Positions 44,273 to 45,577 are shown, counted from the first letter of the stretch. The stretch: DNA of 64,000 bases from Promethearchaeota archaeon (GCA_048937405.1 JBHLNF010000006.1:96001-160000); one strand, 5' to 3'. Program-made: numbers and translations. Notes: a model not told the origin generated them from the letters alone.

Positions 44273-45577
44273 ATGCTTAAAATTGTAAATGTTTGTACGC
44301 GTGTTGAAGGTCATGGAGAAGTTAAAATTATGCTTCAAAATGATGGAGTATCCTTAGCAAATTTTGAATTTCCAGTTTATCGGGGATTTGAAAAATTTCT
44401 AATTGGTAAAAAGCTGCTTGATATTCCTAAATTTGTATCTCGAATATGCGGTTTATGTTATGCTTCTCAAGCAATTGCAAGTTGCAAAACATTAGAAAAT
44501 ATTTACAATTTAGAAATTTCAGAACAAAGCATTAATTTAAGACGCCTTTTAATGGCTGCGGAATTAATAAAATCTCATTCTATGAATTTTTTCTTTCAAA
44601 CTATGCCAGATCTTTTAAAAATTTTTAAAATTACTCAAAAAACTTTATCTCCGTATGAATTAATCAAATTTAATCCTCAATTAACGTCAAATTTATATGA
44701 TTTAATTAAATTTGGAAGTGAAATAAATGAGTTATTTGGTGGTAGATCTGTTCACTTAATTTCAATTGTTCCTGGAGGCGTTATTTATTCTCCTTCTCGA
44801 AAATTAATTTCATTATCTCAAAAATATTTTCAAAAAGCTTTAACCGTTATAGAATGGATCATAGAAGAATTTATCCAATTATTTGCTGATAAAACTCCTC
44901 CAAGAGAATTTAATTTACCGGATTTTATTTGTTTAGCACAAAATAATCATGGTATATATGATCGATATTCTGGCTCATTAAGAATTAAAGAAGAAGACAA
45001 GAACTTAATAGAATTTGAAGCCCAAAACTTCTCTACCTATTTTAGTAAAGAGATAAATCTCCGAGGCATTGATTTTTATTTCGAAAATAAAAAGAATTTA
45101 ATAGTTGGACCTTTCTCACGTTATAATCTTATTGAGAATTATGAATTGGATCAAATCGATACTTATATTGAATACTTTAATAAATCTTGGAAAAAGAATT
45201 TATTATTCATTAATTTTTTGAGATTACTAGAAATATATATTGAATCTTATAAAAGTATACAAATATTGGAGGAACCTTCATTAAACGTTAAGAAAAATCT
45301 TCCTCCTCTAGATGCTATTAAGAAGAATGAGGGTATTGGTGTTATTGAAGCCCCAAGAGGAACTTTAATACATAATTATCATTTAAATAAAAACAATAGT
45401 ATTGATAGAATAAAACTATTTATTGCTACTGAGTTTAATATTCCACTTCTTGATCAAATGATAACTAAATATGCTCAAGAACTATTCGACAAAACTGGTG
45501 ATATTAAATTAGTAGAAAAAGAAGTACAGATGATAATTAGAACCTTTGATCCTTGTATTTCATGTGCTACGCATTAA
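44273..45577 (+). CDS. mvhA: [NiFe]-hydrogenase large subunit, group 3c-like, no C-terminal extension
   Basis: RVEGHG, RGFEKFL, L1 RICGLCYASQ, EAPRGTLIH, L2 DPCISCATH-stop. Confidence 0.9.
   Translation: MLKIVNVCTRVEGHGEVKIMLQNDGVSLANFEFPVYRGFEKFLIGKKLLDIPKFVSRICGLCYASQAIASCKTLENIYNLEISEQSINLRRLLMAAELIKSHSMNFFFQTMPDLLKIFKITQKTLSPYELIKFNPQLTSNLYDLIKFGSEINELFGGRSVHLISIVPGGVIYSPSRKLISLSQKYFQKALTVIEWIIEEFIQLFADKTPPREFNLPDFICLAQNNHGIYDRYSGSLRIKEEDKNLIEFEAQNFSTYFSKEINLRGIDFYFENKKNLIVGPFSRYNLIENYELDQIDTYIEYFNKSWKKNLLFINFLRLLEIYIESYKSIQILEEPSLNVKKNLPPLDAIKKNEGIGVIEAPRGTLIHNYHLNKNNSIDRIKLFIATEFNIPLLDQMITKYAQELFDKTGDIKLVEKEVQMIIRTFDPCISCATH

Follow-up and report, generated by a model that had tools for sequence, protein, structure and literature searches.

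Regulatory hydrogenases (RHs; the HoxC/HupV proteins of group 2b) are H2 sensors of very low turnover that are insensitive to O2 and adopt only the Ni-SI and Ni-C states. In RHs, the His of the L1 motif is replaced by a Gln that "seems not to be involved in H2 sensing" (PMC5665086), and the large subunit is made without a C-terminal extension (PMC7294309), an absence listed for groups 2b, 2d, 4c, 4e and 4g alone (PMC7294309). In this study, we show that both features are found in P0001, an MvhA-like [NiFe] hydrogenase large subunit encoded by a 64,000-nucleotide (nt) stretch from a Promethearchaeota archaeon (GCA_048937405.1, JBHLNF010000006.1:96001-160000; hereafter the window, with positions counted from its first letter), and that they belong to a large, conserved clade derived from group 3c, outside the groups so listed. 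On balance, we favour the reading that this clade represents a lineage-specific type of working hydrogenase in Lokiarchaeia-type Asgard archaea, the Gln-type protein being more likely a working enzyme than a dedicated sensor. The large subunit and the positions on which the comparison turns are as follows.

44273..45577, plus strand: MvhA-like [NiFe] hydrogenase large subunit (P0001), 434 amino acids (aa), with a Pfam NiFeSe_Hases match
44441..44470, plus strand: L1 motif RICGLCYASQ, from the translation
44597..44599, plus strand: Gln109 at the gas-channel gate position, aligned with L122 of D. fructosovorans and F110 of HoxC
45527..45529, plus strand: Gln419; 84% of canonical 3c-like sequences have Glu here, whereas HoxC and all homologues of the crown clade described below have Gln
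45548..45577, plus strand: L2 motif DPCISCATH with TAA directly after it, from the DNA reading

Reading of the DNA through L1 (tct cga ata tgc ggt tta tgt tat gct tct CAA) yields S-R-I-C-G-L-C-Y-A-S-Q, in which Gln66 (CAA, 44468-44470) aligns with the conserved second-sphere His of standard enzymes and with HoxC Q67. At the 3' end of mvhA, the codon for Phe is followed by gat cct tgt att tca tgt gct acg cat TAA, with the stop at 45575-45577, and P0001 is without a C-terminal maturation peptide. The initial annotation had taken these two features together as hallmarks of an RH, and both can be read directly in the DNA. The protein keeps the four Ni/Fe Cys ligands, Glu12 (RVEGH), Arg362 (APRG) and the terminal His434. 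Residues were placed with 1frf_L, of which positions 17-123 pair ungapped with positions 4-110 of P0001, setting Leu61, Gln66 and Gln109 opposite V74, H79 and L122. Leu61 (44453-44455) aligns with V74 of D. fructosovorans and with I62 of HoxC; V74 and L122 of D. fructosovorans form the bottleneck of the gas channel.

HoxC of C. necator, taken from pHG1 (L075:17976-19433), carries the L1 motif RVCGICSVSQ (Gln67) and ends in DPCMVCTVH followed by a stop, in agreement with the initial annotation. P0001 and HoxC share 20% identity in pairwise alignment, with Leu61, Gln66 and Gln109 opposite I62, Q67 and F110. The best solved matches of P0001 are 7t2r_D, 5odc_F (MvhA) and 9sw2_F (MvhA), with E values of 1e-45 to 4e-51, the two MvhA chains aligning over the full length at approximately 30% identity; the three read RICGICPVSH, RICGICQVAH and RICGICDVQH in L1, respectively, and run 24-25 residues past the final His. 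Against NCBIfam models, P0001 scored 154 bits for VhuA, where the cut-off is 800, and 156 for the 3b ShyA model, and no NCBIfam model was matched above its cut-off by this large subunit. As judged from its sequence, P0001 would be most similar in its working to the group 3c Mvh/Vhu hydrogenases, yet it fails their L1 His and cleaved-tail features.

The unusual features are shared by a broad set of relatives. When 5.8 billion proteins were searched, 120 homologues were listed, with 51-95% identity and all from Asgard metagenome-assembled genomes under various NCBI names. Gln occupies the L1 His position in 119/119 of the listed homologues with a readable L1, and in 120/120 with a readable C-terminus there are zero residues past the final His; Gln and the absent tail are also combined in copies from ~40 other Asgard genomes examined. 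Across the phylum (399 species genomes), strong orthologues are found chiefly in the window's GTDB family, most species of which have the traits, and in two further families of its class, while weaker relatives occur in a few others.

Column by column, we contrasted 117 full-length sequences of the crown clade with 37 canonical, long-tailed group-3c-like representatives. Position 66 is Gln in 117/117 crown sequences and His in 37/37 canonical ones, and Gln66 is therefore not a product of chance; at position 109, 110 of the 117 crown sequences have Gln and 34 of the 37 canonical ones have Leu. Six columns alone are fixed differently between the two sets (crown/canonical: 29 V/A, 66 Q/H, 109 Q/L, 145 I/R, 259 K/E and 419 Q/E), whereas the Ni/Fe ligands, Glu12, Arg362 and the terminal His are invariant in both. 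In the open literature searched, we found no description of Gln at the L1 His position or of tail-less large subunits in group 3 or Asgard hydrogenases and no paper joining Asgard, hydrogenase and H2-sensing, and searches on Asgard group 3c together with C-terminal features gave general metabolic reconstructions only.

Phylogenetic analyses with FastTree (120 sequences) and IQ-TREE (quick, PMSF; 43 sequences) place the Gln-bearing sequences in one group in both trees (support 99/100). This group falls inside a short-tailed clade (support 98-99) that is sister to the canonical 3c-like sequences with tails of 20-34 aa. Basal members of the short-tailed clade have His and tails of 3-8 aa (P0158, P0142, P0169 and P0126/L060), the next on the tree have Gln and tails of 5-11 aa (P0124/L059, P0128, L062, P0134 and P0135/L064), and the crown has Gln and no tail. 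The tree calls for no fewer than two Q/H changes, namely a gain and a reversal; the crown-side P0123 has regained His and kept Gln109. Position 109 passes from Leu in canonical sequences to Met in basal ones and then to Phe (the L060 group) or Gln (the Gln group), with the change from the gas-channel Leu to Gln109 at the same node as that from His to Gln66. The features were thus built up stepwise, as tails shortened from ~25 to 3-11 and then to 0 aa. With 20% identity to HoxC against ~30% to MvhA, and with a single origin of Gln in a group-3 subclade, the RH-like traits are convergent; the proposal in the initial annotation that both were gained convergently on a group-3c-like scaffold is upheld on the same grounds.

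Comparable changes are seen in other group-3 lineages. Uncultured group-3b-like representatives have the L1 His and no tail, ending exactly at the final His, and the best solved match of one tail-less member, P0164, is the alpha chain of sulfhydrogenase I; tail loss therefore also occurs in ordinary group-3 enzymes. In a subclade of group-3b-like sequences (P0172, P0185, P0216, P0239, P0245 and P0271), the L1 His is replaced by Tyr, so that, outside sensors, natural sequences replace this 'invariant' His in at least two ways.

Gene neighbourhoods were compared in 40 orthologue loci fetched for this purpose (41 with the window). The order wHTH-HdrA-MvhD > MvhG > MvhA, in which wHTH denotes a winged helix-turn-helix domain, is kept in all orthologue loci with enough flank, and the two partner genes of mvhA in the window are as follows.

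40970..43519, plus strand: wHTH-HdrA-MvhD fusion, with an ArsR-like wHTH (DUF7347) at residues 2-73, HdrA at 95-713 and MvhD at 722-841
43509..44267, plus strand: MvhG small subunit, 252 aa from the likely start Met25 of the 43437 open reading frame (ORF), as in orthologues

An 11-nt overlap joins the start of mvhG to the hdrA stop, a gap of 5 nt separates its end from mvhA, and MvhG aligns with 5odc_E, including the Cys motifs for three Fe-S clusters. The fusion protein is ~849 aa long across the orthologue loci. Its HdrA part aligns over the full length with methanogen HdrA (E value of 6e-108) and keeps the GGGIAG motif for flavin adenine dinucleotide (FAD), and its MvhD part aligns with 5odc_D; the best NCBIfam model of the fusion is HdrA2 (576 bits over model positions 1-768 of 777, below the cut-off of 1100). 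At residues ~483-510 of the fused HdrA, the Cys ligands of one [4Fe-4S] site (CVGSR...C..CC) are gone. Among loci L035-L074, this loss extends to all Gln-type loci and to the His-type L060/L061, while the most basal locus, L063, keeps the four Cys. Every Gln-bearing, tail-less copy examined adjoins the wHTH-HdrA-MvhD fusion, so that the co-occurrence raised in the initial annotation is indeed found. The wHTH also stands beside the His-type relatives L060/L061 and L063, however, which means that wHTH and Gln are separable rather than strictly coupled.

The distribution of hydrogenases among genomes bears on function. The window's genome, 100% complete by markers, encodes two [NiFe] large subunits, namely the Gln-type protein and a VhuA/VhuU type containing selenocysteine (Sec). 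The latter is a split [NiFeSe] hydrogenase (G000:C26, locus L001 360-1854, minus strand): its VhuA (435 aa) has RICGICPIPH, with His, and ends before L2, and a small ORF that follows reads ...VRCYDC-TGA-LSCAAH plus a 21-aa tail, as in a VhuU-like selenopeptide. HdrB-like CCG genes adjoin VhuA/VhuU, and neither PF00346 nor PF02906 has a match in this genome. HypD is also encoded, as is one HycI-family protease on another contig, and the remark in the initial annotation that the window holds no maturation protease gene, although true, is for that reason uninformative.

Five genomes were re-searched with Pfam models, with all first-look candidates scored. In four of them, G199 (99% complete), G162 and G161 (96%) and G263 (95%), the Gln-type ORF is the sole PF00374 match, and no signature of group-4 (PF00346) or [FeFe] (PF02906) hydrogenases was found; the fifth, G153, was left out of this count, having extra large-subunit fragments at contig ends. 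If the protein is the only hydrogenase of a cell, an RH-type protein would have nothing of its own kind to regulate. In the survey of 399 genomes, Gln-type and Vhu-type hydrogenases were each found without the other among species of one genus, with at most four candidates scored per genome, so that a single match there is no proof against a second hydrogenase. An expected loss of HycI from genomes with the tail-less enzyme alone was not borne out, as one HycI-family gene is found in 5/5 (G199, G162, G161, G263 and G153).

The three-gene unit lies within a larger gene island, of which the following features adjoin or resemble its parts.

31157-32362: HdrD-like protein, 401 aa, with ferredoxin and two CCG domains
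39753..40871, plus strand: FrhB-like protein (FrhB2), upstream and in the same orientation, kept only in near relatives (the window's genus)
45657..46712, plus strand: membrane histidine kinase, 80 nt downstream of mvhA, with three to four N-terminal transmembrane helices, an H-box and HATPase_c

In total, the island comprises an HdrD-like CCG protein, two further HdrA homologues, a free MvhD, two FrhB homologues and Mtd, a gene content that constitutes a metabolic redox context. The operon at 31157-36009 runs in the order HdrD-like protein, 1047-aa HdrA-like flavoprotein, free MvhD (168 aa) and FrhB1, with the Mtd gene nearby; the flavoprotein combines a C-terminal ferredoxin domain with two Rossmann-type regions for binding FAD/NAD(P). 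By virtue of this operon, a disulfide-reductase-type partner is present within the window. At 37284-39320 on the minus strand, two adjacent ORFs, one of 134 aa with a FAD Rossmann start and one of 472 aa with Pyr_redox and ferredoxin domains, look like a single HdrA split by an in-frame TGA. This putative Sec-HdrA gene is divergent from FrhB2, and the two have the palindrome region described below in common. Conservation of FrhB, Sec-HdrA and free MvhD, all upstream, does not extend beyond the genus. No RNA sequencing runs were listed for 37200-47100.

We rejected the kinase downstream of mvhA as a conserved partner: an orthologue follows mvhA in 3/40 other loci (4/41 with the window), the kinase is of the membrane type and no PAS domain was found in it. 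A two-component block at 48154-50890 (a REC-AsnC regulator, a HisKA/HATPase kinase and a stand-alone receiver) recurs downstream of mvhA in L040, L041 and L053 only. A protein of 311-355 aa without a Pfam family (for example, L069:9393-10433) occurs in ten loci of more distant genera (L052, L053, L055-L057, L068-L071 and L074), in nine of which it begins -24 to 133 nt after mvhA on the same strand, with the L053 copy ~1 kb further; its relative in the window has 176 aa and lies 1.5 kb downstream (47127-47657). FrhB-like proteins of 478-635 aa are encoded 0.2-2.1 kb downstream of mvhA in L036 and L049, and L040 has one of 635 aa further along. An Asgard [FeFe] hydrogenase was once misannotated as an F420-dehydrogenase subunit (PMC11216029).

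An 18-bp palindrome, TGAYAA-N6-TTRTCA, is present in 48 copies in 660 kb of orthologue loci, against ~1 expected from shuffles of the window. Nearly all copies fall in promoter regions of the (FrhB2-)wHTH-hdrA-mvhG-mvhA operon (loci L036-L074), and at least one is found in 32/40 loci, the His-type L060/L061 among them. The sites are of two types. In operons that begin with wHTH-hdrA, copies lie 60-250 nt ahead of it; in the second type, two copies spaced ~168 bp apart precede FrhB2, within the divergent region that it has in common with the Sec-HdrA gene. The window contains three copies.

30306..30323, no strand: exact palindrome TGACAATAATAATTGTCA, upstream of the operon encoding the HdrD-like protein, 1047-aa HdrA-like protein, MvhD and FrhB1
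39494..39511, no strand: copy with one mismatch, between the divergently transcribed Sec-HdrA and FrhB2 genes, in their promoter region
39662..39679, no strand: second copy with one mismatch, 168 bp from the first, with the same two-copy layout in relatives

Exact copies number 8 genome-wide, against ~4 by chance, and that at 30306-30323 is the sole intergenic one. The wHTH of the HdrA fusion would be the obvious candidate to bind these sites. PutA combines a flavoenzyme with a DNA-binding domain and acts as a repressor of its own genes, depending on the redox state of its flavin. By analogy, the wHTH may bind the palindromes, with the enzyme also regulating its own gene island by redox state in a PutA-like manner.

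Under the reading we favour, the MvhA large subunit, the MvhG small subunit and the wHTH-HdrA2-like-MvhD fusion would form one module. H2 would be split or formed at a normally liganded Ni-Fe site, and electrons would pass through the three MvhG clusters to the [2Fe-2S] cluster of MvhD, on to the flavoprotein HdrA and into the surrounding Hdr/FrhB/ferredoxin network. The protein would be made already in its processed form, with no need of an endopeptidase step. Gln66, Gln109 and the absent tail are derived traits of the whole clade that alter the active-site shell and maturation. These three features converge on RHs but do not alone make a sensor. Taken together, the genomes with a sole hydrogenase, the intact electron-transfer chain, the metabolic island and the published statement on the Gln of RHs (PMC5665086) make a working hydrogenase the likelier reading, although catalytic competence, the metabolic role and the direction of H2 flux are what we infer from sequence. 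Several points weigh against it. The HdrA partner, with one [4Fe-4S] site fewer and a DNA-binding domain added, is not a canonical bifurcating HdrA. Positions 66, 109 and 419, all second-sphere or channel sites, are altered exactly where HoxC departs from standard enzymes. The canonical VhuA/VhuU of the same genome, beside its HdrB-like gene, could bear the metabolic load, as in systems that pair a sensor with an enzyme, and the Pfam models might miss divergent [FeFe] or other hydrogenases in genomes that seem to have the Gln-type protein alone.

Some of these same points would fit a dedicated sensor of H2 or redox state, an archaeal analogue of the RH in which a low-activity MvhAG reports H2 to the cluster-depleted HdrA-MvhD and the wHTH or, in some genomes, the adjacent kinase switches transcription of the Hdr/Mvh island, without bulk metabolism. 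We consider this rather unlikely. Gln66 and the missing tail are indeed as in HoxC, with 109 and 419 altered where HoxC differs, but these traits are clade-wide (117 protein clusters, most species of the GTDB family) rather than particular to this locus, tail-less His types exist among group-3b-like enzymes, and the Gln is reported not to be needed for sensing in RHs (PMC5665086). The fusion of a wHTH to the electron acceptor in every locus, the clade-wide loss of a [4Fe-4S] site from that HdrA and the confinement of an operator-like palindrome to island promoters all suggest regulation, yet wHTH and palindrome also accompany the His-type L060/L061, and the full electron-transfer chain and the FAD site are kept and strongly conserved. 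Two-component genes lie downstream in some loci, but the kinase is found in only 4/41, as a membrane type without PAS. Finally, the separate Vhu-type hydrogenase of the window's genome gives a layout that alone would fit a sensor plus an enzyme, whereas in four genomes that are 95-99% complete the Gln-type is the sole hydrogenase detected, and among close species its occurrence is independent of the Vhu type. The sensor reading of the initial annotation is thus borne out only in part. A broader possibility, which we put forward tentatively, is that MvhAG is the input of a single-complex transcription switch for H2 or redox state, in which reduction of HdrA-MvhD would make the wHTH bind or release TGAYAA-N6-TTRTCA operators at promoters of the Hdr/Mvh/FrhB island; such a switch could be either a pure sensor or a PutA-like enzyme-regulator.

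Two other explanations concern the substitutions themselves. In one, the protein is a metabolic enzyme whose shell of Gln66, Gln109 and Gln419 is an adaptive tuning and whose tail was lost to simplify maturation, with the residues having no regulatory meaning; possible targets are a change in gas access, resistance to inactivation by oxidation or, in syntrophy, a bias towards evolving H2 when its level is low. Fixation of the three substitutions in 94-100% of crown sequences is consistent with this, as are the ungapped alignment of residues 61 and 109 to V74 and L122 of the gas-channel gate, the progressive shortening of tails on the tree and the tail-less His types among group-3b relatives. 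Because it leaves the wHTH and the promoter palindromes without explanation and overlaps largely with a working hydrogenase as set out above, we regard it as improbable in its own right. The other, that P0001 is a decaying or non-functional Vhu/Mvh paralogue, might be suggested by the loss of the canonical His and tail and of an Fe-S site in the partner HdrA. It is effectively refuted by the conservation pattern, in which metal ligands and catalytic residues are invariant, reading frames are intact at 51-95% identity over more than 100 clusters from many genera, and the genes of the operon overlap or abut.

This clade is the main and sometimes the sole hydrogenase of many Lokiarchaeia-type Asgard archaea, the H2 metabolism of which is central to syntrophy models of eukaryogenesis. 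Labels such as 'MvhADG-HdrABC, electron-bifurcating' in metabolic reconstructions extrapolate from enzymes that differ in the active-site shell and in the cofactor set of HdrA. The clade also offers a natural experiment on the roles of the second-sphere His, the channel Leu and the maturation peptide, and the link between wHTH and palindrome, if true, would be a new coupling of H2 or redox state to archaeal transcription.

Among known systems, the methanogen MvhA/VhuA proteins (5ODC chain F and 9SW2 chain F) have in common with the window the MvhG, MvhD and HdrA partners, the metal ligands and the catalytic Glu and Arg. In contrast, their L1 His, channel-gate Leu and cleaved 24-25-aa tail are all missing from the window protein, and methanogen HdrA is unfused, without a wHTH and with all clusters kept, whereas that of the window is fused, has a wHTH and has lost one site. 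The HdrA2 of Methanosarcina, part of the F420H2-dependent HdrA2B2C2, is an HdrA-MvhD fusion as in the window but has neither a wHTH nor a link to a hydrogenase; the window fusion has both and lacks one cluster site. PutA resembles the window fusion in joining a flavoenzyme to a DNA-binding domain, while its fold, its chemistry and its ribbon-helix-helix type of DNA-binding domain are unrelated, and the parallel serves as a hypothesis only. The sulfhydrogenase-type enzymes of group 3b (P. furiosus SH I and T. kodakarensis HyhL) are likewise cytosolic group 3 hydrogenases, with 4-aa tails in solved chains; their L1 His is retained, except in a subclade with Tyr, and their partner subunits are of the diaphorase type rather than HdrA.

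With the group 2b proteins HoxC/HupV, P0001 has in common the Gln at the L1 His position (Q67 in HoxC, Q66 in the window) and the absence of a C-terminal extension. Both are non-standard at the two channel positions (I62/F110 against L61/Q109); the Ile and Phe of RHs, at the places of V74 and L122, narrow the gas channel, and the window has Leu and Gln there. HoxC also has Gln opposite residue 419, but it reads RVEGD where the window keeps RVEGH. The RH signals through HoxJ, a soluble PAS kinase encoded within its operon, with a response regulator also encoded nearby, and is always found alongside the hydrogenases it controls, whereas in the window's clade a kinase is sporadic and the enzyme can be the sole hydrogenase. 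P0001 therefore has two to four residue-level traits in common with the group 2b sensors and departs from them in partner kinase, in co-occurrence and in phylogeny, the RHs belonging to group 2 and the window protein nesting within group 3 sequences.

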